A DNA stretch of 64,000 nucleotides from Candidatus Omnitrophota bacterium (GCA_028716245.1 JAQUQW010000002.1:421346-485345); one strand, 5' to 3'. Shown: positions 1,263 through 61,680, counted from the first letter of the stretch. Translations and numbers: made by a program. Notes: generated by a model from the letters alone, not told the origin.

Positions 1263-2838
1263 AGACATCCGGATATTGATTATCGATGATGACCCTAATA
1301 TATGCGAATCTTTGAAAGATATATTAAGCGAAGAGGGCTATGAGATAGCCACGGCGGGAAATATCGCCCCCGCAAAAGAGGACCTGGCGAAAGAATTTTA
1401 TAACGTCGTTTTGCTTGATCTTAAGTTTCCCAACGGTTCGGGATTGGATTTGTTGAAAGAGTTAAAGGCATCCAACAGCGATACTGCCGTCATAGTGTTT
1501 ACCGGGTATGCTTCTGCGGAGAACGCTATCGCCGCTTTGAACGAAGGGGCGTTTAGCTATATGCAGAAGCCTCTTAATATAGATGAGTTGAAGATAACCA
1601 TCAAAAAAGCGATCCAGGGGCAGGAGCTTATGTTAAGCAATAAAGACCTGTTGAACAGACTCAAAGAGCTTAGCGTTAAAGATCCTCTTACCGGACTTTA
1701 CAATTACCGGTACCTGGAGGAAAGGCTGTCGTCGGAATTTAAAAGGGCGCATAGATATGTGCTGCCGCTTTCGGTAATAATGATCGATATAGATTATTTT
1801 AAATCCATAAATGACATATATGGGCATCAATACGGAGACCTGATCCTGAAGGAGTTCGGGCAATGTTTAAGGGATGCTTCCAGGACCAACGATATAGTTG
1901 TCCGTTACGGCGGCGAGGAGTTTCTTGCTCTTTTACCCGATACCAATAAAACGGGCGCCGTTATTTTCGGCAACAGGCTGCTGGAAAAATTAGTCGGACA
2001 TGTATTTGATCCCCAGGGCCAGAAAATAAAATTAAAGATAAGCATGGGGCTGGTCAGTTTCCCGGAGGACGGCGTGGATACGGAGATGGCCCTTACGGAT
2101 TTGGCAGATAAGACGCTGCGCACGGCAAAAGAGGCCGGCGGCAACAGGTTAGCGACATTGGCGGAGATGACCGAAAAGCAGGCAAATAACGGCGCAAACA
2201 AAGGTGAAAAAGAGAGCGTAGAACAGATGAAGGAGAAGCTGCTTAAGATGGAAGGCAGGGTCAACCAGACTTTACTGGAATCCATTTACGCTTTTGCCAA
2301 GACCATCGAAGCCAAAGATTATTACACCAGTGAGCACGGTGAAAATATGGTTTCTATAGCCGTTGAGATCGGTAAAAAGCTCAACATTTCCGAGAAGGAA
2401 CTGGAAAACCTCAAACACGCGGCGATATTGCATGATTTAGGCAAGATCGGCATTCCCGATAAAATCCTGCACAAAAAAGGGAAACTCAATGAAAATGAAC
2501 TAAAGAAAATAAGGGCCCATCCTCAGATTGGGGCCGAGATTATCAGGAGCGTGCATTTTTTGAGCGCAGTGGTCCCAATAGTCCTTCATCACCATGAGAG
2601 GTTTGACGGCCTGGGATACTCCAGCGGCCTTAAGGGCAAAGATATACTCCTGGGAGCAAGGATTATCGCGGTGGCTGATGTTTATCAGGCGCTGGTTTCG
2701 GACCGGCCGTATCGCAAGGCTTATAGCAAAAGAGAAGCGCTAAAGATTATTCAGGAAGGCGCCGGCACGCAATTTGATCCGGAGATAGTTAAGATATTCC
2801 TGGAAATATCAAAATCTAAAAGCAGAGGGCCTAAGTAA
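1255..2838 (+). CDS. Response regulator with REC + GGDEF (diguanylate cyclase) + HD-GYP domains
   Basis: Receiver 'ILIIDDD...VLLDLKFP'. The GGDEF domain has an intact 'RYGGEEF' active site and an RxxD I-site ('RTND') five residues upstream. The C-terminal HD-GYP-type domain has 'HDLGKIGIP' and 'HHERFDGLGYSSG'. The start overlaps the kinase stop. Confidence 0.85.
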   Translation: MYKDIRILIIDDDPNICESLKDILSEEGYEIATAGNIAPAKEDLAKEFYNVVLLDLKFPNGSGLDLLKELKASNSDTAVIVFTGYASAENAIAALNEGAFSYMQKPLNIDELKITIKKAIQGQELMLSNKDLLNRLKELSVKDPLTGLYNYRYLEERLSSEFKRAHRYVLPLSVIMIDIDYFKSINDIYGHQYGDLILKEFGQCLRDASRTNDIVVRYGGEEFLALLPDTNKTGAVIFGNRLLEKLVGHVFDPQGQKIKLKISMGLVSFPEDGVDTEMALTDLADKTLRTAKEAGGNRLATLAEMTEKQANNGANKGEKESVEQMKEKLLKMEGRVNQTLLESIYAFAKTIEAKDYYTSEHGENMVSIAVEIGKKLNISEKELENLKHAAILHDLGKIGIPDKILHKKGKLNENELKKIRAHPQIGAEIIRSVHFLSAVVPIVLHHHERFDGLGYSSGLKGKDILLGARIIAVADVYQALVSDRPYRKAYSKREALKIIQEGAGTQFDPEIVKIFLEISKSKSRGPK

Positions 2839-2840
2839 TC

Positions 2841-3197
2841 ATGCAAAAAGAGATCGCTATAGTCATTGCTGATGATAACCAGAGTATTCGCGAAACCCTC
2901 AAGGACATCTTGAGCGAAAAGGGGTATTTTGTCGAAACAGTCAATAACGGTTACGAGTTGTATGATTATTTAAAGAAGAAATCACCGGAGATTGTAATCC
3001 TGGACCTAATGATGCCCGAGAAGGACGGAACTGAAACTATTTTTAGCATTAAGACCGTTTCTCCCAAGTCCAAGATTATAATTTATACCGGATTTCAAAG
3101 ATATGAAAATTCGATCTACGCCCAGGCCGCGGACAGGTTTCTGTTAAAAGGTAATACCCTGGAAGATTTATTAAAGGCCATCGAGGAATTGTTATAA
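2841..3197 (+). CDS. Single-domain response regulator (CheY-like receiver)
   Basis: 'IAIVIADDNQSIRETLKDIL...VILDLMMPEKDG' receiver signature with no output domain. Confidence 0.8.
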   Translation: MQKEIAIVIADDNQSIRETLKDILSEKGYFVETVNNGYELYDYLKKKSPEIVILDLMMPEKDGTETIFSIKTVSPKSKIIIYTGFQRYENSIYAQAADRFLLKGNTLEDLLKAIEELL

Positions 3198-3237
3198 TTT
3201 CTCCGCCTGCGGGGTGGGTATTTTTTTTTTAAACAAC

Positions 3238-3266
3238 TTGACAAGGGTAGGGGGGTATGGTATTAT
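3238..3266 (+). promoter_or_regulatory. Sigma70-like promoter (TTGACA-N17-TATTAT) with G-tract operator-like sequence in the spacer
   Basis: 'ttgaca' 3238-3243 and 'tattat' 3261-3266, followed by RBS 'aaaggag' and the csoR ATG at 3291. The spacer is 'agggtaggggggtatgg'. A weak hairpin plus T10 run at 3201-3230 terminates the upstream regulator genes. Confidence 0.5.
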
Positions 3267-3290
3267 TGATTTGGAAAGGAGACACAGAAG

Positions 3291-3575
3291 ATGGAACAGT
3301 CAACTACCCATGAAGGACAATTGGAATTTTTGAAAAAAATCGAAGGGCAGGTCCGCGGCATACAAAAGATGATTGAAGAAAAACGCTACTGTGTGGATAT
3401 AATTACCCAGATTCATTCCATTGTCGGGGCGCTGCACAGAGTAGAAGATGAGATATTTAAGAAACATATTGACGGCTGTGTGGTGAGCGCCTTAAAGGGA
3501 AAATCAGAAAGCGAAAAGCAAAAGAAAATCAATGAAATCGTAAAACTTATTTCCAGGTTCAGGAAGGCGGCTTAG
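3291..3575 (+). CDS. csoR: CsoR-family copper-sensing transcriptional repressor
   Basis: 'LKKIEGQVRGIQKMIEEKRYCVDIITQI' is the DUF156/CsoR core. The Cu(I) ligand triad has exact CsoR spacing: C ('RYC'), then H 25 residues later ('KKH'), then C four residues after that ('HIDGC'). Confidence 0.85.
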   Translation: MEQSTTHEGQLEFLKKIEGQVRGIQKMIEEKRYCVDIITQIHSIVGALHRVEDEIFKKHIDGCVVSALKGKSESEKQKKINEIVKLISRFRKAA

Positions 3576-3579
3576 GCGT

Positions 3580-4860
3580 ATGCTTAAAAAGACTTTGGCC
3601 CTAATTTTGGTTGGCGTATGCGTATTCAATAGCGGCTTTGCTTATCCCTTGGACCGGCTGTCCTTGGATCCTTTAATCGAAGAAGCCAGAAAAAATAATC
3701 CGGATATTTTAGCCGCCAAGAAACGCTGGGAAGCTTCCAACGCCCGCATACCGCTGTCAAAGTCTTTGGATGACCCGGTATTAAGTTTTACTTTCGAAAA
3801 AACACGCGGCAGCCCTTTTCAATTAAGCAAAACAATGCCTGAAGACAGGATGCTCTCTCTCTCTCAATTTTTGCCCCTCTTTGGCAAATTGTCCCTGAAA
3901 GGGAAAATTTCCGTGGTTGAATCCCGGATGTTTGCCGCTGAATATAAAAATAAGGAATTGGAAGTAATCAATCAAATCAAAAATGCTTATTACGATTTAT
4001 TTATGGACTATAAGGAGATTGGATTGAATCAGGAAAGCCTGGTATTGTTAGAAGGCCTGATCAAAGTTGCCGAAGCAAAATATGCGGTTGGCGGTATGCC
4101 TCAGGAGGAAATTTATAAGCTGCATTCGGAGGCAGCCAGCCTTAAAAACAAAATCAAAAACCTGCAAGAGGGCAAGCTTGCCAAACAAACAATCCTGAAT
4201 ACCTTATTAAACAGGGATCCGCAAGGGCCATTAGGAATTCCGGAATTAAGCCAGGATGTTTCCTTTGCTAAAGACATCCGCGCCTTGTATCAAGCTGTTT
4301 TGCTTAACCAGCCGGAATTGCTTATTTTCGCATCAGCTATAGAAAGAAATAAATACGCCAAGTCTCTGGCAAAACGAAGCTTCTTTCCGGATTTATTGGC
4401 CCAAATTACGGAGCGGGGTTTTACTACGGGAACCATCGGCCCCTGGGATTTAATGTTGGCATTTACAGTGCCGTTATGGTTCTGGACAAAACAACGTTAT
4501 CAAGTAAAAGAAGCGATCGCTAATTTAGAAGAAGCAGAGGAGGCATATAAGGCAATGCAGAATAAGGCGTTTGCCGAAGTTAAGGATTTAGCCGCAAAAA
4601 TAGAGATCGCCAAAAATAAAATAAAACTCTATAAAACCGACCTTATACCGATATTAGAGAATTCTTTTGAAGTGTCTTTGGCTTCGTTTCGTTCCGGAAG
4701 AAGTGATTTTATGGCGCTTATCGATACCCAAAGAATGCTTATCGAGACCAAAATGGACTATTATAAAGCGCTGGTTGAATACAATATGGCTTTGGCCGAC
4801 CTGGAACGCTCCGTAGGCTTGAGTTTTACCGAAAAATCCGAGGTGAAAAATGAGAAATAA
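3580..4860 (+). CDS. cusC: Outer-membrane efflux protein (TolC/CusC/CzcC family)
   Basis: Signal peptide and two OEP repeats, with the typical 'LNQPELL...AKYAVG' helical pattern. It sits immediately upstream of the adaptor and RND genes. Its stop overlaps the next gene's start. Confidence 0.8.
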   Translation: MLKKTLALILVGVCVFNSGFAYPLDRLSLDPLIEEARKNNPDILAAKKRWEASNARIPLSKSLDDPVLSFTFEKTRGSPFQLSKTMPEDRMLSLSQFLPLFGKLSLKGKISVVESRMFAAEYKNKELEVINQIKNAYYDLFMDYKEIGLNQESLVLLEGLIKVAEAKYAVGGMPQEEIYKLHSEAASLKNKIKNLQEGKLAKQTILNTLLNRDPQGPLGIPELSQDVSFAKDIRALYQAVLLNQPELLIFASAIERNKYAKSLAKRSFFPDLLAQITERGFTTGTIGPWDLMLAFTVPLWFWTKQRYQVKEAIANLEEAEEAYKAMQNKAFAEVKDLAAKIEIAKNKIKLYKTDLIPILENSFEVSLASFRSGRSDFMALIDTQRMLIETKMDYYKALVEYNMALADLERSVGLSFTEKSEVKNEK

Positions 4861-9371: not shown

Positions 9372-10718
9372 ATGATAATGGTGCACACGCAAAATGGCAT
9401 GCATGCGATGAATTTTGTATGCTTCCTTACCTTCTTGACCTTTATTTTCATATTCGGCCTGATAATTTGGGAAAAAATCCCCCGAATGTACCTGGCGCTA
9501 TGCGGGGCAGTCCTGGTTGTTGCTTTGGGCGTTTTTGATGTCAAGGAAGCCATAAACACGGTAAGTTGGGAAACGATCGGTTTTTTGCTGGGGATGTTCC
9601 TGCTTGTAGAGATACTTGTTGAAGCGGGTTTTTTCCGTTGGGTAGCATTGGTTCTGGCCGGAAAGCTCAATTACCAGCCGATTAAAATACTCATATTTTT
9701 TCCTCTATTGTCCTTTGGATTATCCGCGTTTATTAATTCCATAACCGTCATGGTTTTTTTGACGGTAGTTACTTTTGAGTTGAGCAGATTGCTTAAATTC
9801 GATCCTGTGCCGGTAGTAATAAGCGAGGTAGTGTTGGCCAATATCGGCGGGGCGGCTACCCTGGTCGGAGATCCTCCGAATGTCATCTTAGGGACAGTGC
9901 TCGGTTTTAATTTCAATGATTTTCTCGTTCACAACGGGCCCATAGCTGTACTTTCTGCCCTGGTTGCCATAGGCGTGAGTTTTTTGATGAATAAAAAAGC
10001 ATTTTCACAGTTGCACCCCGAGGCAGATTTAGAGGGAATAAAAAATATCCAGCCGCGTTCCCAGATAAAAGATAAGTTTCTGCTTAAAATCGGCTTGATC
10101 GGAATGGCCGTGGCATTGATTTTTCTTATCGGCAGGCCCTTATTTGAAAAATTCGGTATTCCGATGTATGTTTCGACTTCTTCGCTGCTTCCGGCATTCC
10201 TCATTCTTACCTTTGGCGGAAAAAGGATTTATAAACACCATTTTATGCGCCGGATTGATGCTGAAACCATTATGTTTTTTATTGGTTTGTTTATCATTAT
10301 CGGCGCTTTAGAGAAAAGATTCATTATCCAGATGGCGGCAAACTTTCTTGGCGAAATATTTAAAACTCCCCTGGGTTTTATAAGTTCGACCTTTTGGGGT
10401 TCAGCGATAATTTCGGCGTTTGTGGATAATGTGCCTTTGGCCATGGCCATGACTTATATAATAAAACAGAGCGTGGCTGCAAAAATAATCCCGGGGGCCG
10501 GTATTATGGTTTGGGCAACCAGCCTGGGTGTGGATTTAGGAGGCAATCTTACCCCCATAGGCGCCTCGGCAAATGTGGTGGCGTATTCTTCTTTAGAAAA
10601 AAATGAGATTAAAGTCGGCTGGGGGAGGTGGTTAAAATTAGCGCTTCCGCAGGGTTTGGCGGCGCTTGCCGTAAGTTATCTAGGTATTTTACTTAAATTA
10701 CACTTAAAGTTTTTTTAA
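9372..10718 (+). CDS. Ion-transporter superfamily permease (ArsB/NhaD/CitMHS-like)
   Basis: About 12 TM segments, an internal repeat structure, and motifs 'GDPPNVILG' and 'GGNLTPIGASANVV' typical of ArsB/NhaD-fold permeases. Substrate unknown. Confidence 0.55.
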   Translation: MIMVHTQNGMHAMNFVCFLTFLTFIFIFGLIIWEKIPRMYLALCGAVLVVALGVFDVKEAINTVSWETIGFLLGMFLLVEILVEAGFFRWVALVLAGKLNYQPIKILIFFPLLSFGLSAFINSITVMVFLTVVTFELSRLLKFDPVPVVISEVVLANIGGAATLVGDPPNVILGTVLGFNFNDFLVHNGPIAVLSALVAIGVSFLMNKKAFSQLHPEADLEGIKNIQPRSQIKDKFLLKIGLIGMAVALIFLIGRPLFEKFGIPMYVSTSSLLPAFLILTFGGKRIYKHHFMRRIDAETIMFFIGLFIIIGALEKRFIIQMAANFLGEIFKTPLGFISSTFWGSAIISAFVDNVPLAMAMTYIIKQSVAAKIIPGAGIMVWATSLGVDLGGNLTPIGASANVVAYSSLEKNEIKVGWGRWLKLALPQGLAALAVSYLGILLKLHLKFF

Positions 10719-11912: not shown

Positions 11913-14138
11913 ATGGAAAAAATTACTCTTAATATTACCGGTATGCACTGTGCCTCGTGCGCAAGTAATATCGAAGCTGCCTTAAAAAGGTTTCCCGGGG
12001 TTTTTAGCGCCCGGGTTAATTTTGCTACAGAGAAGGCCTATATTGAATTCGAACCTCGAAAATTAAAGCTAGCGGATTTAATCAGAACGGTTGAAAAATC
12101 GGGATATAAGGCCTCTTTACCCGGACTATCCCCGGATAGAGAAAAAGAAATAAGGGAGAGGGAAGTAAGGAGCCTAAAAATAAAATTTATACTTTCGATA
12201 ACCTTATCCAGCATATTGATGTATATTGCCATGGGGCCATGTATAGGATTAGGTATCCATAAAACTATCATGGATAATATGGCCCTTATTCAATTCTTAT
12301 TGGCAAGCGGGGTCTTAATCTGCGGGTATCAGTTTTTTGCGCGCGGGATCTTTTCGCTGGTAAGGATTCATCGGGCGAATATGGATACACTGGTAGCTTT
12401 AGGCGTAGGCAGCGCCTATCTGTATAGTTTATTTGTCAGTATTAACATCTGGCTGGGCAATAAATCCTTTGGGATGAGAAATCTTTATTATGAGGTGGCT
12501 GCATTCCTGCTTACCTTTGTTCTATTGGGCAAGTATTTAGAGGCGATTACCAAGAGGAAAACTTCGCAAAGCATCAAGCGCTTATGGAATTTACGCCCCA
12601 AGACTGCGATAGTGATGCGTCAGGGGCAAGAAGTGGAAATTCCCGTTGAAGAATTGCTGGTTGGAGATACGGTGGTAGTGAAGCCCGGGCAGAGGATCCC
12701 GGTTGACGGCAAGATTACCGAAGGGTATTCCAGTATTGATGAATCGATGATCACCGGAGAGAGTATCCCCCTAGAGAAGACACTAAATGACAAGGTTATC
12801 GGCGGCTCGATAAACAAATACGGGACTTTTAAGTTCAAAGCCACAAAGGTAGGCAAAGACACTGCCTTGGCCCAGATCATAAAATTAGTTGAAGAGGCTC
12901 AAGGGTCAAAAGCCCCCATACAGGAATTAGCGGATAAGGTTGCCGCCATTTTTGTGCCTATGGTATTAATCATCGCTTTTGCTTCCTTCTTTATTTGGAT
13001 TTTCTTAGGTAAAGGTTTTATTTTCGGTTTAACTACTTTTATCGCGGTGTTAATTATTGCCTGTCCCTGTTCTCTGGGTCTGGCTACTCCCACCGCGGTT
13101 ATGGTGGGAACCGGAAAAGCGGCAGAAAATGGAATAATTATCAAGAACGCGGCCTCTTTACAGATAGCTGCAGAAATCGACAAAATTATTTTTGATAAAA
13201 CCGGAACCCTTACTGAGGGTAAGCCTAAGCTTACAGATATCGTAAGTTATATCGGGAATAAAGATGAGGTGTTAATGCTTGCCGCGTCCTTGGAGAAACC
13301 ATCCGGCCATGTCCTTTCCGATGCTATCGTTGGCGCTGCCAAAGAAAAAGGCATCTCTTTAACGCAGCTGCAGCAGTTTGAAACCATATCCGGCGAAGGG
13401 GTGGTGGGTAAAATTGAAGAGGGCCAAACGATCCTGGCGGGTAACCGCCGGCTTATGCAAGAGAGGGCAATTGATATAAAAATCGCAGCAGGGGATTTAG
13501 ATAGATTAGAGAAGCAGGGAAAGACCATAACCTTGGTTGCCAAAAATGATAGGCTTATCGGCTTAGTGGCAGTAAGGGACACTTTAAAGGAGTTTTCTAA
13601 AACCTTAATTGATAAACTGAAGAGAATGGGTAAGGATGTGATTATGATCACTGGCGACAATAAACGGACTGCCGTGGCAATTGCCAAAGAGATAGGTATT
13701 GAAAAGGTTCTAGCGGAAGTTTTGCCAAAAGACAAATTAGATGAAATTAAGAAATTACAGAACGAGGGTTTTAAAGTTGCTTTTGTGGGAGACGGAATCA
13801 ATGATGCCCCGGCCTTATCTCAAGCTAATTTGGGTATAGCTATCGGAAGCGGTACAGATGTAGCCATTGAATCAGGAGATATTATTTTAATTAAAGACGA
13901 CCTGCGTGATGTAGCAATGGCTATAGATCTATCGGGCTATGCAATGAGAAAGATAAGGCAGAATCTTTTCTGGGCATTCTTTTATAATATAATCGGGATC
14001 CCTATTGCCGCAGGAATACTCTATCCATTTAACGGCCTGCTGCTTAATCCGATGGTGGCCGGGGCGGCGATGGCCTTTAGTTCGGTGTCTGTGGTGTCGA
14101 ATTCCTTATTGATGAATAAATATAAGCCAAAAATGTAG
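11913..14138 (+). CDS. copA: Copper-translocating P1B-type ATPase
   Basis: N-terminal HMA 'GMHCASCASNIE', TM6 'CPC' ('IACPCSLGLATP'), phosphorylation site 'DKTGTLT' and hinge 'GDGINDAP'. Confidence 0.95.
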   Translation: MEKITLNITGMHCASCASNIEAALKRFPGVFSARVNFATEKAYIEFEPRKLKLADLIRTVEKSGYKASLPGLSPDREKEIREREVRSLKIKFILSITLSSILMYIAMGPCIGLGIHKTIMDNMALIQFLLASGVLICGYQFFARGIFSLVRIHRANMDTLVALGVGSAYLYSLFVSINIWLGNKSFGMRNLYYEVAAFLLTFVLLGKYLEAITKRKTSQSIKRLWNLRPKTAIVMRQGQEVEIPVEELLVGDTVVVKPGQRIPVDGKITEGYSSIDESMITGESIPLEKTLNDKVIGGSINKYGTFKFKATKVGKDTALAQIIKLVEEAQGSKAPIQELADKVAAIFVPMVLIIAFASFFIWIFLGKGFIFGLTTFIAVLIIACPCSLGLATPTAVMVGTGKAAENGIIIKNAASLQIAAEIDKIIFDKTGTLTEGKPKLTDIVSYIGNKDEVLMLAASLEKPSGHVLSDAIVGAAKEKGISLTQLQQFETISGEGVVGKIEEGQTILAGNRRLMQERAIDIKIAAGDLDRLEKQGKTITLVAKNDRLIGLVAVRDTLKEFSKTLIDKLKRMGKDVIMITGDNKRTAVAIAKEIGIEKVLAEVLPKDKLDEIKKLQNEGFKVAFVGDGINDAPALSQANLGIAIGSGTDVAIESGDIILIKDDLRDVAMAIDLSGYAMRKIRQNLFWAFFYNIIGIPIAAGILYPFNGLLLNPMVAGAAMAFSSVSVVSNSLLMNKYKPKM

Positions 14139-14236: not shown

Positions 14237-15784
14237 ATGAAGATACTGAACAAGAATACGATCAAACTGCTCAAGCTTTTTTATAAGCACCCCGAAAGCC
14301 AGTTTTACATTCAGCAGATCGGCCGGCTCTTGGGGAAGAAGCCCGGGGTATTCCAAAGGACTTTGAACAATCTCTATAAGGACGGTTTGCTTTTAAGCGA
14401 ATATAAGGCCAATGCAAGATTTTTCAGGATTAACAAAAATTATTATATCTATAATGAGCTAAAGAGCATCATCGATAAATCGGTTAAAATATTTTTGATT
14501 ATATTCTTATTCTCTGTCCCGTTTTTATATGCCGCAGAAAATCCGCTTACCTTAAGCCAGGTAATAGAGATCGCCTACAAAAACAACAAGGATATCCGGA
14601 TACAAGAGCAGGAGATCGCCGCCGCCGGAGCCGGTATACTGGGAGCTTCCAGTAATTTCCTGCCGCATCTGGATATTGATGCCGCCTATACGCGCAATGG
14701 AGCGGTTGCCGTTTCTACGGCCCAGGGTAAGAAAGATCCCGGGATATTTACCGGATATAAGAACGATAATTCTTTGGGAGCAAGTTTAAGCCAGATAATT
14801 TATAACGGCGGTTTTAATACCGCTAATCTTAACCAGGCAAAAGTCGCTTTGAATGTCCAGAAAGAAACCCTGCGGGCTAAAAAACTGGATATCGAATTTG
14901 AGGCAAAGCGGCTTTATTACGGTTTGCTGCTGGCTTATGAAACAGAGAGGATTGCTCAGGAGTTGGTAGATAATGCCAAGGATCACTATACGGATGTTAA
15001 AAATAGATATGGGCAGGGGACATCTTCGAAATTTGACCTGCTGCAGTCGGATGTCCAGGCATCTTTGCTTATCCCGGAACTGGTAAAAGCCCGGAATGCG
15101 GTGGATTTGATTAAAGCGGAGCTGAAAAAACTTTTAGCTTTTAAACAACAAGAGGAACTAGAGGTGGCGGATAAACAGCTGCATTATTCTTTACTTAAAA
15201 TCCAGGAGGATGATTTCTTAAAACAGGCTTATCTGAACAAGCCGGAAATGATTTTAAAGTCCCTGGGCATAGATATCAGCCGGTGGTCGATACAAATAGC
15301 AAAATCCGGATGGCTGCCGCAGGTAAACGCCAGTTTAGGCTATGATTATCGTTCAAATGATATAGGAAATATGTTTAATCGCCGGCATAATAATTGGAAT
15401 ACCGGAATTTCCTTATCCATGCCGCTATTTGACGGTTTTTCCACAAAAGCAAAAGTAGATGCTGCCCGGGCCCGCTATAGCCAGGCGCTCCTGACTAAAG
15501 AAAACCTGGTGGATCAGATTGCCGTTAGTGTCCGGCAGGCCTGCCTGGATTTAAAGCAGGCCGAAGCAATCATTAATTCGCAAAAGGATAATGTGGGAAA
15601 AGCAAGAGAGGCCTTAAGAATTGCCAATGTCAGTTATGATAACGGAGAGGCAAAGAACCTTGATGTGCTCGATGCGCAGGTCTCATTGGGCCAGGTGGAA
15701 ACAAATCTTTCACAGGGAATTTACGATTATCTTATGGCAAAAGCAGAACTTGACAGGGTCTTGGGTTTAAGTTTTATTCAGTAA
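14237..15784 (+). CDS. TolC-family outer-membrane efflux protein with an unusual ~80-aa N-terminal winged-helix-like extension
   Basis: Residues ~85-515 are a typical OEP/TolC with two repeats, after a signal-like 'VKIFLIIFLFSVPFLYAAE'. The first 80 aa 'LLKLFYKHPESQFYIQQIGRLLGKKPGVFQRTLNNLYKDGLL' look like a wHTH DNA-binding domain. The ATG at 14237 has a good RBS and no in-frame stop separates the two parts. Confidence 0.75.
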   Translation: MKILNKNTIKLLKLFYKHPESQFYIQQIGRLLGKKPGVFQRTLNNLYKDGLLLSEYKANARFFRINKNYYIYNELKSIIDKSVKIFLIIFLFSVPFLYAAENPLTLSQVIEIAYKNNKDIRIQEQEIAAAGAGILGASSNFLPHLDIDAAYTRNGAVAVSTAQGKKDPGIFTGYKNDNSLGASLSQIIYNGGFNTANLNQAKVALNVQKETLRAKKLDIEFEAKRLYYGLLLAYETERIAQELVDNAKDHYTDVKNRYGQGTSSKFDLLQSDVQASLLIPELVKARNAVDLIKAELKKLLAFKQQEELEVADKQLHYSLLKIQEDDFLKQAYLNKPEMILKSLGIDISRWSIQIAKSGWLPQVNASLGYDYRSNDIGNMFNRRHNNWNTGISLSMPLFDGFSTKAKVDAARARYSQALLTKENLVDQIAVSVRQACLDLKQAEAIINSQKDNVGKAREALRIANVSYDNGEAKNLDVLDAQVSLGQVETNLSQGIYDYLMAKAELDRVLGLSFIQ

Positions 15785-15838
15785 CACCCCGCGCTTATAA
15801 GGAATTGCGCGGGTGTGCCCTTGTGGGCAAAGGAGGCA
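15785..15838 (+). promoter_or_regulatory. Conserved double-hairpin leader motif (copy A) immediately upstream of the RBS
   Basis: 'CACCCCGCGC-ttataaggaatt-GCGCGGGTG' forms hairpin 1 and 'TGCCC-ttgt-GGGCA' forms hairpin 2, followed by 'AAGGAGG'. Related copies are at 22805 and 60605. Confidence 0.4.
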
Positions 15839-15842
15839 GGTA

Positions 15843-16676
15843 ATGAAAATAAAAATTAAACCGGCAGTATTTGTTTTAATTCTTATTCTTGCCGCGGGAA
15901 GTATCGTTGCCTATTTTTGGCAGGTGCGTCATTACAGCCGCGGAAGAATTAAAGTTTCAGGCAATATCGAAGGGGATGATGTCCGGCTTTCCTTTCGCGT
16001 ACAGGGCCAGATTCTGGATCTGCTTAGCGATGAAGGCCAAGTAGTTAAAATAGGCCAGCCGGTAGCCAGGTTAAATACTGATGAGCTGACTAAAATCCGC
16101 GATAATGCCGAAGGCGCGCTGAAAGCGGCGCAATACCAGTATTCGCTGGACAAGCTTGATTATGAACGGGCTGAAAATTTATATAAGGCCGGAGCAATAT
16201 CGATGCAACAAAGGGATGCCGCCAAGACTTTGGCCTCCGCGGATAAAGCGAATATGCAGGCGCTGCGCGCTTCTTTTGAATTAGCTGAAACCAGATTAGG
16301 TTTTGCGGAATTGGTTTCTCCGCTTAATGGTTTTGTGCTGGTCAAAAGCGCTTTAACCGGCGAGGTGGTGCAAATTGGGGCTCCGGTATTTACCGTAATT
16401 GATTTAAACAGCCTCTGGGTTACCGCTTATATCAATGAGACGGATTTAGGCAAAGTAAAACTTAATCAGGAAGCCGAAGTTGTTGCCGATACCTATCCCG
16501 GGAAAAAATACAAAGGAAGAGTTTCTTTTATTTCAAATGAGGCGGAGTTCACGCCGAAAACCATTCAGACCACGGAAGAAAGGGTAAAACTTGTTTATAG
16601 AATAAAAGTTGACGTGGATAATTCAAGCTTGGAGCTTAAACCCGGGATGCCGGCAGACGCCTATATAATCGAATAA
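15843..16676 (+). CDS. HlyD-family periplasmic adaptor (membrane fusion protein) of an ABC-2 exporter
   Basis: N-terminal TM, coiled-coil and 'biotinyl/lipoyl' hairpin 'GQVVKIGQPVARLNT'. RBS 'aaaggagg' precedes the ATG at 15843. The track ORF starting at 15813 is probably an over-extension. Confidence 0.8.
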   Translation: MKIKIKPAVFVLILILAAGSIVAYFWQVRHYSRGRIKVSGNIEGDDVRLSFRVQGQILDLLSDEGQVVKIGQPVARLNTDELTKIRDNAEGALKAAQYQYSLDKLDYERAENLYKAGAISMQQRDAAKTLASADKANMQALRASFELAETRLGFAELVSPLNGFVLVKSALTGEVVQIGAPVFTVIDLNSLWVTAYINETDLGKVKLNQEAEVVADTYPGKKYKGRVSFISNEAEFTPKTIQTTEERVKLVYRIKVDVDNSSLELKPGMPADAYIIE

Positions 16677-20644: not shown

Positions 20645-21604
20645 ATGCTGCAGCTGATCGTCGATTGGTTGATGTATTCTGTTTTTAAGCTGGACGCTAA
20701 TTCCAGGATAAATGCGGCTATTAATTTTTTTATTTATGATTCCGTAAAGATAATTTTACTTTTATTCGTGATGATTTCCGCAATAGGATTTTTACGGAGT
20801 TTTTTATCGCAGCAAAAAATCAAAGCCTGGATTACGGGGACTAAAGGATGGGGCAATTTCTTTGCCTCCTTATTCGGCGCGATAACGCCATTTTGCTCCT
20901 GCTCTTCGATCCCGCTGTTTATGAGCTTTTTGGCCGCCGGAATTCCCCTGGGCGTAACTTTTTCTTTCCTGGTCACCTCGCCGCTTATTAATGAGTACCT
21001 GGTTGTATTGATGATCGGCTTTTTCGGTTGGAAGATCACATTGGCGTATGTGATCAGCGGGATGACTATCGGGATTGTCACCGGGATAATTTTAGGCAAA
21101 ATGGAATTGGAAAAGTACCTTGAGAAAGATATTTTTACCGCCAGTCTCGGAGATACCTGTGAAATCAAGACCAAAGGGATAAAACAGAGGATCATCTTTG
21201 GAATGAATGAGGCGGTATGCGTTATAAATAAAATATGGGCTTGGGTCCTTGCAGGCGTGGGCCTGGGCGCGCTTATCCACAATTATGTCCCTCAATCAGC
21301 GGTCCAGGTGATCGTAAATAAAACAGGATTTTTTTCCGTGCCTTTAGCGACTGTTATTGGCGTGCCGATGTATGGCAGTTGCGCGGCCATTGTCCCTATC
21401 GCGGTTGTTTTGTTCCAGAAGGGTTTCCCCTTAGGCACTGCTTTAGCGTTTATGATGGCAGTAGCCGCCTTAAGTTTGCCTGAGGCAATCATGCTTAGAA
21501 GAGCAATGAAGCCAAAACTGATCTTTATCTTTTTTGGCATAACAACGTTAGGCATCATATTTACAGGTTATTTATTTAATTTATTGCAAAAGATATTGAG
21601 CTAA
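20645..21604 (+). CDS. ArsP/DUF318-family permease (putative organoarsenical/metalloid or thiol-reactive compound efflux permease)
   Basis: About 8 TM segments, with '[13 protein letters not shown]' matching the TPFCSCS cysteine motif of the ArsP permease family. Confidence 0.6.
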
Positions 21605-21699: not shown

Positions 21700-22095
21700 A
21701 TGGCGGACTTTAAGGATTTGCTGCAAACCGCGGACTGGAAAACCGAAAAACATGTTCCGGTAATTGAGATGCCTGATGCCGTAAAAAAGGGCGAGTTCTT
21801 CAGGATTACCGTGACGGTTGGTAAAGAAATTACCCATCCGAATAAGGCCGAGCACCACATCCGCTGGATAGCGGTGTATTTTTTACCCGAAGGAGAAAAA
21901 TTCCCTTACCAAATCGCCAAGGCTGAATTTAGCGCCCACGGAGAATCTGCCAAAGGCCCGGATACAAGCACGGTATATACGCATCCGGAAGTAGGATTAA
22001 ATTTTAAGACCGAAAAGCCCGGAACAGTTTATGCCTCCAGTTATTGTAATATACACGGATTATGGCAGAGCGCTAAAGACATGCAAATTAAGTAG
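21700..22095 (+). CDS. Superoxide reductase (neelaredoxin / 1Fe-SOR, desulfoferrodoxin ferrous-iron domain)
   Basis: 'EKHVPVIE' and the 'CNIHGLW' iron-ligand motif, plus 'HHIRWI'. About 130 aa. Confidence 0.85.
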   Translation: MADFKDLLQTADWKTEKHVPVIEMPDAVKKGEFFRITVTVGKEITHPNKAEHHIRWIAVYFLPEGEKFPYQIAKAEFSAHGESAKGPDTSTVYTHPEVGLNFKTEKPGTVYASSYCNIHGLWQSAKDMQIK

Positions 22096-22185: not shown

Positions 22186-22818
22186 TTGGCTAATGAATTA
22201 AAATATCTGTCCGGAAAAGACGTTGTCGTATTAGGTATCCCGCGGGGAGGTATTATTATAGCCGCCGAAGTTGCCCGCCTGCTGCAGGCTAAATTAGATA
22301 TCGTGCTTTCCCGTAAGATAGGGGCTCCGGGCAATCCTGAACTGGCGATCGGCTCGGTTGGTGAAAATGGAAAACTTTTTCTTAATGATGGCCTGGTTTC
22401 CCGGGTAGGCGCGGATAAGAATTATATCGAATCAGAAAAAATACGGCAGTTAGCCGAGATTAAAAATCGGATCAAAAAGTGCCGGCAGATTAAGCCCAAA
22501 GTTTCTTTAGAAGGGCAAACAGTTATTGTTATTGATGATGGGATAGCAACCGGCGCGACAATGCAAGCAGCGCTTTTAGCTGCCGGCCGCCAAAAGGCGA
22601 AAAAAGTTATTGCCGCGGTTCCGGTGGCTGCTAAAGAATCCATTGTTTTGTTGGCTAATTATGCCGATGAACTGATAGTGTTAAGAGTGCCGGAGTTTTT
22701 GGGATCAATTGGGCAGTTCTACGAAAATTTTGGTCAAACTTCCGAAGGAGAAGTTTTAAGCGCGTTGAGAGAAGCGGCAGAAAAAGAAAAACAATTAGGT
22801 AAGACACCCCGCGCTTAG
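22186..22818 (+). CDS. Phosphoribosyltransferase-family protein (type I PRTase fold)
   Basis: PRPP-binding loop 'VIVIDDGIATGATMQAA'. About 210 aa. Confidence 0.7.
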   Translation: MANELKYLSGKDVVVLGIPRGGIIIAAEVARLLQAKLDIVLSRKIGAPGNPELAIGSVGENGKLFLNDGLVSRVGADKNYIESEKIRQLAEIKNRIKKCRQIKPKVSLEGQTVIVIDDGIATGATMQAALLAAGRQKAKKVIAAVPVAAKESIVLLANYADELIVLRVPEFLGSIGQFYENFGQTSEGEVLSALREAAEKEKQLGKTPRA

Positions 22819-22857
22819 CGGAATTGCGCGGGTGTTGTCTTCGTAGACAAGGAGGCC
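22805..22857 (+). promoter_or_regulatory. Conserved double-hairpin leader motif (copy B)
   Basis: 'CACCCCGCGC-ttagcggaatt-GCGCGGGTG' overlaps the PRTase stop, and 'TTGTCT-tcgt-AGACAA' is followed by 'AAGGAGG'. Hairpin 2 carries compensatory changes relative to copies A and C. Confidence 0.4.
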
Positions 22858-22860
22858 AAG

Positions 22861-22971
22861 ATGTGTAAAACCTGCGGTTGTTCACCCTGCAAGTGCGGAA
22901 AGAAAATAGTAAAAGGGGTATGCGAGGGCTGCGGTAAAAAAAGCGATGAATGCAGTTGTCTTAAGAAATAG
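22861..22971 (+). CDS. Small cysteine-rich peptide (36 aa, metallothionein-like)
   Basis: My own translation gives MCKTCGCSPCKCGKKIVKGVCEGCGKKSDECSCLKK, with 11 Cys in 36 aa. RBS 'aaggagg' lies 7 nt upstream. The ORF is absent from the track because of its size. Confidence 0.5.
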   Translation: MCKTCGCSPCKCGKKIVKGVCEGCGKKSDECSCLKK

Positions 22972-33588: not shown

Positions 33589-33789
33589 ATGGCAAAGGGA
33601 AAAGTAAAGTGGTTTTCAGACCAAAAAGGTTTTGGGTTTATCACACCTGAATCCGGTAGCGATGTATTCGTTCATCACAGCGCGATCCAGGGTGAAGGTT
33701 ATAAATCTTTAGCCGAGGGCCAGGATGTTGAGTTTAACATCGAAAAAGGACCTAAGGGCGAACAGGCTACTAATGTAGTCAAGCTCTAA
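33589..33789 (+). CDS. cspA: Cold-shock protein (CspA family)
   Basis: '[18 protein letters not shown]...DVFVHHSAI' contains RNP1 and RNP2. A hairpin plus T-run terminator lies at 33805-33845. Confidence 0.9.
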
Positions 33790-33858
33790 AGCTAAAAAAA
33801 CAAAATAGCCTGGCTTCTATAACTGGAGGCCAGGCTATTTTTTAAAAAAGGAGTCAGA

Positions 33859-34059
33859 ATGAATACGGGAAAAATCAAAAAGCTGGTCCGCGATCGCGGG
33901 TTTGGTTTTATCAGCGATACCGACGGCAGGGAAGTGTTTTTTCACCAGAATAGCTTGGTTGAAGTAAAATTTGACGCTTTAAACGAAGAACAGGTAGTAA
34001 CCTATGATATTGAAAAATCCGATAAAGGCCCGCGCGCGGTCAATGTGCATATCGCCTGA
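33859..34059 (+). CDS. Cold-shock-domain protein (divergent paralogue)
   Basis: 'GKIKKLVRDRGFGFISDTDGREVFFHQNSL'. Confidence 0.8.
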   Translation: MNTGKIKKLVRDRGFGFISDTDGREVFFHQNSLVEVKFDALNEEQVVTYDIEKSDKGPRAVNVHIA

Positions 34060-38426: not shown

Positions 38427-38699
38427 ATGATACAAATAAGCAATTTCGATTGGGATGAGCAAAATTTAGAGCATATACATAACCACTTTGTTAAGGATTA
38501 TGAAGTCGAAGATGTCTTATTGTTCGATGAGCCAATTTATTATAGAAGAAAGGAAAACAAATATTGCGCCTTTGGCATTAGTAATGGAGGCAGATATCTA
38601 TTCATTGTTTTTGTAGTTAAGGATACAGGGTTGATAAGAGTTATTACGGCAAGAAATATGACCAATACGGAAAAGAATCTTTATAACAAGAGAAGGTAA
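38427..38699 (+). CDS. brnT: BrnT-like toxin (DUF497, RelE/ParE superfamily)
   Basis: 'FDWDEQNLEHIHNH...VEDVLL...RYLFIVFVVKD..IRVITARNMTNTEKNLY' matches the BrnT pattern ('F.WDe.K...H....e..vf....r.l.vv.t.R...RIISAR.a...E...Y'). Confidence 0.65.
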   Translation: MIQISNFDWDEQNLEHIHNHFVKDYEVEDVLLFDEPIYYRRKENKYCAFGISNGGRYLFIVFVVKDTGLIRVITARNMTNTEKNLYNKRR

Positions 38700-38706
38700 A
38701 GAAAAA

Positions 38707-39060
38707 ATGAAAAAAAAGATACCTGAATTTAAGAACGAGAAGGAAGAAGCAAGATTCTGGAGTAAGCATAGCCCGATTGAGTTTTTGGATGAATTTAAAG
38801 AAGAAAAGGCGCCATTTGAATTTACTATGGGATTACTTAAGAAAGCGGCCGAAGAACATAGAGAGAAAAAGAGCGCTTTAACCCTCAGAATGGAGCCCAG
38901 CCAGATTTATCTTACAAAAATCATCGCTAAAATTAAAGGAGATAAGTATCAATCCTTAATGAGGAGATGGATTCGCGAGAGAGTATATAAAGAAATTAAG
39001 GAGCATCCTGAGGTAGAAGATGAAATTCGTAAACAAAAAGCACATCTAGTGAGCAGATAG
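38707..39060 (+). CDS. brnA: BrnA-like antitoxin
   Basis: Starts 8 nt after brnT. The N-terminus 'IPEFKNEKEEARFWSKHSPIEFLDEFKEE' is the characteristic BrnA opening. The C-terminal basic helix is consistent with an RHH-like DNA-binding domain. Confidence 0.55.
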   Translation: MKKKIPEFKNEKEEARFWSKHSPIEFLDEFKEEKAPFEFTMGLLKKAAEEHREKKSALTLRMEPSQIYLTKIIAKIKGDKYQSLMRRWIRERVYKEIKEHPEVEDEIRKQKAHLVSR

Positions 39061-60270: not shown

Positions 60271-60359
60271 GCGATAAATAAATTTAAAATATAAGTTTGT
60301 AAAAAGTCCCGCTGATGAAGCGGGATTTTTTGTTTGTACAGCATTAAGCTCTACGCGGG

Positions 60360-60519
60360 TCCTGTCAGGCCTTGTCTCTCGCAGCACCGCTCGATTTTCC
60401 CCAGCGTGGAAAATCTTCGCTTCGGCAAAAATTCTCGCTCTGCCGGGAGATTTATTGCGGGCAACCCTGCCCGCTCGAATTTTTGAGATGCTCACTCGAG
60501 TCCAAGGCTTGCCACCCGC
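60360..60519 (+). repeat. ~160-nt GC-rich intergenic repeat element, copy 2
   Basis: 'tcctgtcaggccttgtctctcgcagcaccgctcgattttccccagcgtgga...ttattgcgggcaaccctgcccgctcgaattttt...gccacccgc' pairs with the reverse complement of 57387-57540. It contains an internal hairpin 'gcgggcaaccctgcccgc'. Confidence 0.7.
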
Positions 60520-60604
60520 GTTAAGATTTGAGCCGCTGAATTTTATGTCCCGTCGAGAAAAATCCTTGACGGAAGATTGATTTTATTCTAAGATGTTTAA
60601 ATTA

Positions 60605-60639
60605 GGGAATTGCGCGGGTGTGCCCTTGCGGGCAAGGAG
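60605..60639 (+). promoter_or_regulatory. Conserved leader motif (copy C, hairpin-2 half) upstream of argC
   Basis: 'GGAATTGCGCGGGTGTGCCCTTGCGGGCAAGGAG' matches copies A and B from the loop of hairpin 1 onwards. The 5' arm 'CACCCCGCGC' is absent. Confidence 0.4.
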
Positions 60640-60645
60640 AGTCCA

Positions 60646-61680
60646 ATGATTATCAATGTTGGAATAATCGGAGCCACCGGTCATACTGGAGAGGTTCTTA
60701 TTGAACTTTTGCTTAGCCATCCCAATGTTAAGATTACCCGCCTTTACAATAGCGGAAAAAGTAGCCAAGGGGCTTGCGTTATTTCCGATATTTTTCCAAA
60801 ATTTAAGAAGAGACTGGACCTGGTTTGCACAAAACCGGATTGGGCCCAAATTAAAAAAGATTGTGACCTGATTTTTTTGGCCCTGCCGCATACCATATCG
60901 ATGAAATTCGCGCCTAAACTTTTGAGTTTAGGCAAGAGGGTCATTGACTTAAGTGCCGACTATAGGATTAAAAATCAGGCGCTTTATGAAAAATTTTATA
61001 AGATAAGCCATCTGGATAAGGCCAATTTAAAACAAGCAGTTTACGGGTTGCCGGAATTAAATAGAGCAAAGATTAAAACCGCAAAACTCTTGGCCAATCC
61101 CGGATGTTATCCGACTTCGGCGATTCTTGCGCTTGCCCCATTGCTGGCGGTAAATTTAGTGGATACGGATTCGATTATTATCGACGCTAAATCCGGAGTA
61201 AGCGGGGCGGGGAAAAAACTGGAAAAGGAATATTTATTTTCTGAGATACAGGGAGATTTTCGGGCTTACAAAGTTAACGTGCATCAACATTCGCCGGAAA
61301 TAAACCAGAGTCTCTCTAAGCTATCCGGAAAAAAGATTGAGGTGGTATTTGTGCCGCATCTTTTACCCATTGAAAGGGGCATACTTTCGACGATTTATCT
61401 TAAGAAGTCTCCGGGAGCAAAACTTAAAGTAAACAGCGTAGTAGAATTATATAAAAAATTCTATAAGAATGAGCCGTTTATCCGGATCAAACCGGATGGT
61501 GTTTTTCCCCGGATCAAGGATGTGGTTAAGACTAATTTTTGCGACATTGGGGTCAAGGATTTTGGTAAAACAATTATTGTCATTTGCGCCATCGATAATT
61601 TATTAAAAGGAGCATCAGCTCAAGCAGTACAGAATATGAATATTATGTATAAGCTGCCTGAGACAGCGGGATTATTATGA
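60646..61680 (+). CDS. argC: N-acetyl-gamma-glutamyl-phosphate reductase
   Basis: 'VGIIGATGHTG' and the active-site 'ANPGCYPTS'. The start at 60646 follows 'aaggaga'. Confidence 0.9.
   Translation: MIINVGIIGATGHTGEVLIELLLSHPNVKITRLYNSGKSSQGACVISDIFPKFKKRLDLVCTKPDWAQIKKDCDLIFLALPHTISMKFAPKLLSLGKRVIDLSADYRIKNQALYEKFYKISHLDKANLKQAVYGLPELNRAKIKTAKLLANPGCYPTSAILALAPLLAVNLVDTDSIIIDAKSGVSGAGKKLEKEYLFSEIQGDFRAYKVNVHQHSPEINQSLSKLSGKKIEVVFVPHLLPIERGILSTIYLKKSPGAKLKVNSVVELYKKFYKNEPFIRIKPDGVFPRIKDVVKTNFCDIGVKDFGKTIIVICAIDNLLKGASAQAVQNMNIMYKLPETAGLL

Follow-up and report, generated by a model that had tools for sequence, protein, structure and literature searches.

Why should three genes with nothing in common carry the same double hairpin directly upstream of their ribosome binding sites? 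The window considered here is the whole stretch of 64,000 nucleotides from a Candidatus Omnitrophota bacterium, and its argC likewise points to a Candidatus Omnitrophota MAG. A first-pass annotation had pointed to such a motif before an HlyD-type adaptor gene (copy A), before an ORF for a 36-aa Cys-rich peptide (copy B) and, in a shortened form, before argC (copy C). The recurrence is borne out by direct reading and by an exact search with the 15-mer GGAATTGCGCGGGTG, which occurs exactly three times in the window; a fourth match has 3 mismatches. This 15-mer is the top direct-repeat family of the window, and the chance expectation for an exact 15-mer is about 1e-4 in 64 kb. A covariance model run on the window matches A, B and, weakly, C only. 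The genes downstream of the copies are unrelated, and the upstream neighbours are a TolC-type OEP for A, a phosphoribosyltransferase-domain protein for B and a promoter for C. The features at the three sites are as follows.

15782-15829, plus strand: copy A, complete element (covariance model 66.5 bits; RNAfold); the TAA at 15782-15784 at its 5' end is the present TolC stop and is counted within the element
15785-15815, plus strand: hairpin 1 of copy A, with 5' arm CACCCCGCGC (15785-15794), loop TTATAAGGAATT (15795-15806) and 3' arm GCGCGGGTG (15807-15815)
15816-15829, plus strand: hairpin 2 of copy A, TGCCCTTGTGGGCA (TGCCC-TTGT-GGGCA)
15830-15845, plus strand: Shine-Dalgarno sequence (SD) AAGGAGG (15830-15836), N6 and the HlyD ATG (15843-15845), a pre-existing target outside the inserted element
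22792-22850, plus strand: copy B, complete element with 9 nt of extra 5' DNA, CAATTAGGT (covariance model 78.7 bits; RNAfold)
22805-22834, plus strand: hairpin 1 of copy B, with 5' arm CACCCCGCGC (22805-22814), loop TTAGCGGAATT (22815-22825) and 3' arm GCGCGGGTG (22826-22834)
22835-22850, plus strand: hairpin 2 of copy B, TTGTCTTCGTAGACAA (TTGTCT-TCGT-AGACAA)
22849-22971, plus strand: AAGGAGG (22849-22855), N5 and the 36-aa Cys-rich ORF (ATG 22861, stop 22971); the SD is pre-existing
60566-60594, plus strand: sigma-70-like argC promoter TTGACG-17-TAAGAT, conserved in relatives without the element
60605-60634, plus strand: copy C, 5'-truncated element without the 5' arm (covariance model 16 bits), with GGAATT (60606-60611), 3' arm GCGCGGGTG (60612-60620) and hairpin 2 TGCCCTTGCGGGCA (TGCCC-TTGC-GGGCA; 60621-60634)
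60635-60648, plus strand: argC SD (AGGAG), N6 and start ATG at 60646, pre-existing; AGGAGAGTCCAATG is identical in the element-free locus L036 of a relative

Both hairpins form in A (-24.9 kcal/mol) and in B (-24.2 kcal/mol) when folded with RNAfold, a check that the first-pass annotation had proposed, and nothing notable is predicted for C. The stem described for hairpin 1 is present; its detail has to be amended to 9 pairs, a bulged C and 1-2 R:T pairs. The copy before argC does share the element from the loop of hairpin 1 onwards and is without the 5' arm, as had been read. In copy B the first two A's of AAGGAGG also close hairpin 2. The first arm was said to overlap the stop codon of the upstream gene in A and B, but the TAA of copy A only abuts the arm, and in copy B the in-frame stop is the TAG at 22816-22818 in the loop of hairpin 1, the TAA at 22800-22802 being out of frame. 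The argC transcript would start at about 60601-60603, just 5' of copy C.

The window holds several other small features. The 36-aa ORF, MCKTCGCSPCKCGKKIVKGVCEGCGKKSDECSCLKK (22861-22971), has 11 Cys residues and looks metallothionein-like from its sequence; its neighbourhood (11913-14138, 20645-21604 and 21700-22095) encodes an HMA P-type ATPase, an ArsP permease and a desulfoferrodoxin, all linked with metal handling. The small ORFs of the window that were checked are cold-shock and toxin-antitoxin proteins. Two tandem cold-shock-protein genes lie at 33589-34059 with a terminator-like hairpin, GCCTGGCTT..GCCAGGC, between them (33802-33853), followed by a T-run, an A-run and GGAG. This hairpin gives a weak 14.7-bit match to the covariance model and was rejected as a family member. 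A gene pair for a BrnT-like ribonuclease toxin and a CopG-like antitoxin is found at 38427-39060.

How far does the motif extend beyond this window? The repeat unit is about 50 nt long and consists of (A)RR-CACCCCGCGC, a loop of 11-12 nt ending in GGAATT, GCGCGGGTG-T(T) and a hairpin 2 of free sequence with 4-6 bp; it is usually followed by AAGGAG and by a start codon 5-10 nt later. The exact 17-mer GGAATTGCGCGGGTGTK was scanned in one genome per bacterial and archaeal species and matched at least 120 loci. Among the 120 loci listed, approximately 75 belong to Omnitrophota-type genomes, of which there are at least 51, the complete one of Ca. Velamenicoccus archaeovorus LiM among them, and every one of these loci has the full architecture. 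The remaining listed loci (Actinomycetota, Acidobacteriota and others) have the 17-mer alone in common. In viral contigs GGAATTGCGCGGGTG gave 35 lone chance matches with no flanks in common. The covariance model, R1, was built from 36 copies. The further copies that the first-pass annotation proposed to look for were found with it: there are 98 in 622 kb of Omnitrophota loci, compared with a single weak 22-bit match in a control of 331 kb of non-Omnitrophota loci with a chance 17-mer.

The genes downstream of these copies include tuf, dnaK, rpsL, dnaN, transporters and biosynthetic genes, and have no functional theme; dnaK is preceded by a copy in two species. It had been allowed that the motif might turn out to be a fragment of a known repeat family. 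It does belong to a large dispersed repeat family, but a literature search, two large Omnitrophota genome papers included, found no prior description of the repeat. No match was obtained in Rfam at the gathering thresholds, with only noise at E<=10, and on loci with atypical copies Rfam returned tRNAs, a TPP riboswitch and a group I intron only, none of them linked to the element. The group I intron (RF00028, 72 bits) lies at 97-320 on the minus strand of L133, an Omnitrophota contig that carries the element.

Two observations concern the records themselves. Contigs begin or end inside the element in L165 (1-29) and L103 (1-38), and in L059 a tandem array (805-905) abuts a run of N; evidently the repeat breaks short-read metagenome assemblies. 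Canonical elements were also seen in L046, L059, L081, L103, L112 and L128, which are titled 'uncultured Planctomycetales', and in L096, titled 'Deltaproteobacteria'. Where these were compared with Omnitrophota loci (dnaK of L128 with L095, and L081 with L043) the tblastx identity was 92-94%, and judging by sequence the record titles of these seven MAGs probably mislabel Omnitrophota genomes.

In the alignment of 98 copies, which was fitted to the covariance model and hence leans to the modelled structure, 97.7% of the pair cells are standard pairs and 13 of the 14 pairs show double changes. The observed pairing values are not reached in any of 500 shuffles, and the signal breaks down when the partners are moved along by 1-3 columns. 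Hairpin 2 is free in sequence and all 5 of its pairs covary across the family, in agreement with the earlier observation that it varies yet keeps its pairing. Hairpin 1 has subfamilies with other stems (CACCTGGCGC/GCGCCAGTG, CACCCGGCC/GGCCGGTG and CACCCAAATC/GATTTGGTG), all of which keep the CACC..GGTG base and a loop that contains GGA. Paired columns hold 32 G.T cells and 5 A.C cells, and therefore it is the sense strand that folds, be it in the mRNA or as a single strand of DNA. The selection on structure that had been proposed is thus upheld: compensatory changes preserve the two hairpins, and only on the sense strand is wobble tolerated. Conservation on the 5' side ends three bases before CACC (A-R-R); these purines pair with the T(T) after GGGTG, which sets the unit at about 50 nt. 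Copies were also inspected for a pseudoknot that would join the variable stretch of loop 1 to the hairpin 2 loop, and no covariation was seen.

Is the element a fixed part of the genes that it precedes? Comparison of orthologous leaders had been suggested as a check, and in close relatives conservation of the gene does not extend to its copy at any of the three loci. The site of copy A is filled in L165 (HlyD 92% identical) and empty in L164 (96% identical), L160, L161 and L163. In L164 TolC continues to ...QPADIKEASK*, overlaps the HlyD start and holds AAAGGAGGCAAGTAAATG within its coding tail; TolC and HlyD overlap in L160, L161 and L163 too. The window has 47 nt (TAACACC...GGGC) in place of 11 nt just 5' of the SD, and in this way copy A ends TolC about 10 codons early and uncouples TolC from HlyD. 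For copy B the empty site is found in L168, where a single 259-aa ORF (...EKKEARMCKTCGC...) takes in both the phosphoribosyltransferase and the Cys-rich peptide and carries GAAAAAAAGGAGGCCAGGATGTGTAAAACC in frame (KKEARMCKTC...). Copy B is a 57-nt insertion directly 5' of the in-frame AAGGAGG, so that the enzyme stops at the TAG in the loop and the Cys-rich peptide becomes a separate cistron. Neither the element nor the Cys-rich part is present in L166 and L167. The 30 nt of copy C are absent from the argC leaders of L036 and L037 (argC 94% and 88% identical), which are otherwise collinear, with the promoter and AGGAGAGTCCAATG conserved and flanks that align at 94.5% and 100%. The gap between rpsI and argC varies in other ways as well. 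The segment at 60352-60519 of the window is inverted with respect to 9754-9918 of L036 (87% identity on the opposite strand), and in L037 the same gap holds a fragment of an integrase-core (rve) gene (9439-9882). From its sequence this spacer looks like a rearrangement hot spot.

The same pattern was seen elsewhere among the fetched loci, with presence/absence at an MFP/RND pump and at four further sites. At the MFP/RND-pump junction there is a clean 51-nt insertion between GGAG and GAGAG, which supplies an in-frame TAG, and in another filled/empty pair a clean insertion lies between TAA-AAA and AAGGAGG. The argJ-argB junction is filled in L037 only, dapA-dapB shows presence/absence polymorphism, with a perfect 14-nt repeat flanking the copy of L036, and rpoC-rpsL, with three copies in one species, is empty in a second. 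One site is occupied by different subfamilies in two species, and one copy lies between the SD and the ATG. The possibility that the element brings its own SD was ruled out, as AGGAG is already there when the site is empty, at A, B and C and in two more filled/empty pairs. The filled/empty pairs show that the element comes and goes, that AGGAG belongs to the target and that the 3' junction is exact. New copies thus arise between closely related genomes, directly 5' of an existing AGGAG and even inside coding sequence. With the sites empty in relatives at all three loci, the idea of a leader or operator tying the three genes to a shared regulator is not supported.

The position of the copies relative to genes is consistent with these junctions. 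The SD core lies 0-8 nt after hairpin 2 in 52 of 84 copies, 50 of which have a start codon and an ORF; altogether approximately 60% of copies abut an SD and a start codon. The other 40% or so are not before a gene start and are tandem or nested, beside terminators, or between convergent genes. Within operons, copies follow the stop codon of one gene, precede the SD of the next and are oriented with the operon, and an upstream stop codon often adjoins the 5' end of the element. The element terminates the upstream frame with a TAA or TAG of its own and carries no start codon. That its stops close all three frames was considered and rejected, being true for just 8 of the 84 copies.

Taken together, the most probable reading, held with some reserve, is that the three sites hold one and the same element of about 50 nt, dispersed through the Omnitrophota and complete in A and B, 5'-truncated in C, and that this insertion-polymorphic structured repeat, akin to REPs and transcribed MITEs, acts as a portable intercistronic spacer. 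The element is a remodeller of gene junctions and not a gene-specific regulator: insertion turns overlapping or fused frames into a stop codon, two hairpins, an SD and a start codon. As a portable intercistronic or 5'-UTR module it would be co-transcribed with the flanking genes and folded in the mRNA. Each hairpin would serve as a cap, hairpin 1 for the RNA upstream and hairpin 2 for the RNA downstream, with the SD staying free. The near-invariant CACC/GGTG base of the stem and the GGAAUU loop suggest recognition by a phylum-wide factor. This putative conserved factor, which would probably read the stem base and the loop, could be a nuclease, a nickase or another RNA- or ssDNA-binding protein, and it could also copy the element. 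The exact conservation of sequence across species could also be explained by what a mobilising enzyme requires, with no function for the host.

How is the element copied? Nested copies provide one clue, as 13 of 13 entered between GG and AATT of the loop of the outer copy, and copy C begins at the same loop position. Head-to-tail tandem units are also present. Target-site duplication is not supported in general, the mean flank repeat being not above that of mismatched pairs (p=0.15), with a modest excess of repeats at 6-7 nt or more (15 of at least 6 nt, against 8.1+-2.4 in mismatched pairs). The 14-nt repeat at dapA-dapB of L036 is the one clear case. Clean filled/empty pairs show no duplication or small deletions; A has a small target deletion and B has 9 extra bases on the 5' side. 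The idea that the 5' flank is repeated in the 3' arm of hairpin 2 fails across copies, and the empty argC site lacks such a sequence. The exact 3' junction at an SD-like GGA and the hot spot in the GGA loop point to a targeted break-and-join or to a templated copy. This could go by way of an HUH-type nick in the loop, a template switch for which AAGGAGG serves as the anchor, or a reverse transcription that uses the SD for priming. In windows of up to 21 kb around the matches, no gene for a transposase, an RT or an HUH protein was seen in linkage with the element. A partner gene was looked for between the oppositely oriented copies of L111, the one such pair examined, and what lies there is dnaA and dnaN and no transposase. 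At that locus (1618-4235 and 2717-2770) the element fills the dnaA-dnaN junction, and a nested copy is found upstream of dnaA, in a region possibly close to the replication origin. Another palindromic repeat, CTGCCTGCCGGCAGGCAG, recurs among the Omnitrophota loci (L063 1079, L074 2101, L097 1572, L117 2154, L134 4693, L136 949 and L163 15221). It is sometimes inserted in hairpin 2 or the 3' arm of the element (L063, L111 and L117) and is absent from the 64-kb window.

These clues and the function proposed above can be joined in a tentative reading, which is possible without being favoured. The element would be a site-specific mobile module that homes to SD-like sites containing GGA, either 5' of AGGAG or in its own GG^AATT. 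It would be moved by an Omnitrophota-wide enzyme that nicks and joins or copies from a primed template, such as an HUH-type nickase or a reverse transcriptase, or by an SD-anchored template switch. On the host side the module would have been co-opted as a portable intercistronic expression element that uncouples overlaps and splits ORFs.

It is rather unlikely that the element is purely selfish DNA with no host function, hairpin 1 being the ssDNA recognition or nick site of an HUH-type enzyme, as in REP/RAYT systems, IS200/IS605 derivatives and rolling-circle origins, and the RNA structure being incidental. Insertion polymorphism among close relatives, the tandem units and the single loop position shared by nested copies and copy C would all be expected of such an element, and the excess of G.T over A.C fits ssDNA of one strand as well as RNA. 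A GC-rich stem of 9-11 bp with an AT-rich loop of 11-12 nt presumably resembles nick-site hairpins and was counted in its favour. However, besides the missing partner gene (windows of up to 21 kb around the matches), neither a conserved 5' target tetranucleotide nor inverted doublets are seen, and just one hairpin is conserved in sequence. It would also have to be explained separately why copies border precisely on the SD and why they face only one way with respect to genes, and copies persist 5' of tuf, dnaK, rpsL and dnaN.

Another reading takes the element for a cis-acting RNA site of a global post-transcriptional factor that defines a large regulon. The candidates are a CsrA-like protein bridging the GGA of the loop and that of the SD, or an endoribonuclease that cuts polycistronic mRNAs. 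CsrA/RsmA sites are alike in having a loop GGA and an SD GGA a few tens of nt apart, and a candidate pair of this type, GGAAUU in the loop and AAGGAGG about 30 nt downstream, can be read in A, B and most copies. The fold on the sense strand and the conservation across the phylum of sequence, and not of structure alone, also fit such a factor. The predicted transcript of C would start at GGAAUU, which is the 5' end that cleavage in the loop would give in A and B. On the other hand, mobility, a 50-nt repeat unit and conserved GC stems are not features of CsrA/RsmA sites, and relatives of 87-96% identity differ in whether a given gene has the element. The downstream genes lack a functional theme, many copies are nested, tandem or not 5' of genes, and no candidate factor was identified. 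This reading is considered unlikely.

Could the hairpins act on the neighbouring genes as an intrinsic terminator or attenuator of the upstream gene, or as a thermosensor or riboswitch that sequesters the SD? Stable GC-rich hairpins directly after stop codons, the copy before dnaK in two species and an alternative pairing in B (GUCUUC:GGAGGC) that is able to cover the SD would speak for this. But no U-tract follows either hairpin, the sequence there being purine-rich, a scan found neither a promoter nor a terminator inside A or B, and the alternative pairing is available to B alone, other hairpin 2 sequences not allowing it. The SD lies outside both hairpins, and its predicted accessibility beside elements, 0.59, is about that of control starts or marginally higher (0.50, p=0.07), with no clear gain. 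A first test had indicated that the element raises SD accessibility, an effect that was set aside when proper start-site controls gave this p value. The first-pass suggestion that the element controls ribosome access is therefore not sustained as far as sequestration is concerned, the accessibility being not clearly different from that of other genes; RNA processing, also suggested there, may take place at the element. There is also no Rfam match and no association with a class of genes, and this group of mechanisms is very improbable. The pairs covary, as they would in a gene-specific riboswitch or leader, and the element is not conserved before orthologues or before one class of genes.

A DNA operator, in which the inverted repeat CACCCCGCGC-N11-12-GCGCGGGTG would be bound by a dimeric transcription factor that co-regulates the downstream genes, had also been proposed and is hardly credible, for although the repeat is perfect in A and B, where some two helical turns separate the half-sites, C offers just one of them, compensatory changes across subfamilies keep the pairing of the stem and not a binding sequence, G.T exceeds A.C, hairpin 2 covaries, copies sit inside operons between stop codon and SD and not at promoters, and orthologous genes lack the element.

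The reading of the element as a portable intercistronic spacer can be set beside known small repeats. REP/BIME sequences of proteobacteria, which go with RAYT transposases, are likewise short GC-rich imperfect palindromes, clustered and in many copies per genome (here three in 64 kb and 98 in 622 kb), lie between operon genes co-oriented with transcription and are insertion-polymorphic. They are known to stabilise upstream mRNA segments, a property that the element may share by analogy. Unlike REPs, the element has no GTAG-type head, GTAG occurring only inside some hairpin 2 variants, and no inverted doublets (REPIN/BIME), its clusters being direct tandem or nested in the same orientation. It has a covarying second hairpin and its 3' end abuts the SD, whereas REPs lie after stop codons at any distance. 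REPs are usually specific to a species or genus; the core of the element is common to at least 51 species of a phylum, and no RAYT has yet been associated with it. The Correia repeats of Neisseria (CREE/NEMIS) and ERIC of Yersinia and enterobacteria are also small repeats near gene starts whose presence varies between strains. They are co-transcribed, form hairpins and alter mRNA processing, stability and expression, as the element might by analogy. They differ in their length of 100-160 bp, in having inverted repeats at their ends and in being bordered by a TA or another fixed duplication, in contrast to about 50 nt, no fixed duplication, an internal hairpin with a conserved loop and a precise position next to the SD. 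The terminal inverted repeats and fixed-length target-site duplication of a MITE were not found in the flank-repeat tests.

In siting the element is close to the mycobacterial MIRUs, which are intercistronic, oriented with the operon and touch the upstream stop and the downstream start region, with tandem copy number that varies; the element is placed between cistrons in the same way. MIRUs, however, are direct-repeat units with small overlapping ORFs that preserve translational coupling, whereas the element is a double hairpin without a coupling ORF that breaks coupling or overlap and relies on the SD. The palindromic elements of Rickettsia (RPE) also land in reading frames and remodel proteins, but RPEs are in frame and translated, and the element ends the upstream frame and separates two cistrons. 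Plastid intercistronic expression elements, RiboJ and Csy4 hairpins are functional analogues only. They too are short structured modules between cistrons, directly 5' of the RBS, with a recognised hairpin, a spacer hairpin and the SD, and they make the downstream cistron independent of its upstream context, which the element may do by analogy; unlike the element, they work by a known cleavage or protein cap. Integron attC sites were considered and rejected, as the consensus has no R''/R' cores (RYYYAAC ... GTTRRRY) and copies are sporadic and not at every gene. The element is classified as nearest to REP/BIME and transcribed MITE-like repeats in its working and to MIRUs in its siting, and it lacks defining features of each.

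The Omnitrophota are an uncultured phylum of ultra-small cells, and what is known of small interspersed palindromes comes mainly from proteobacteria and firmicutes in culture; their sequence is usually lineage-specific. One core sequence common to dozens of species in an uncultured phylum sets this family apart, and the position next to the SD, exact to the nucleotide, and the reproducible insertion into its own loop are distinctive. The repeat shifts predicted stop and start codons in the annotation of Omnitrophota MAGs, and it changes the structure of genes, turning overlapping genes into separate cistrons and splitting a fused ORF. It may point to an unknown enzyme or RNA-binding factor, and it offers a natural system in which to study the remodelling of operon junctions and of translational coupling.
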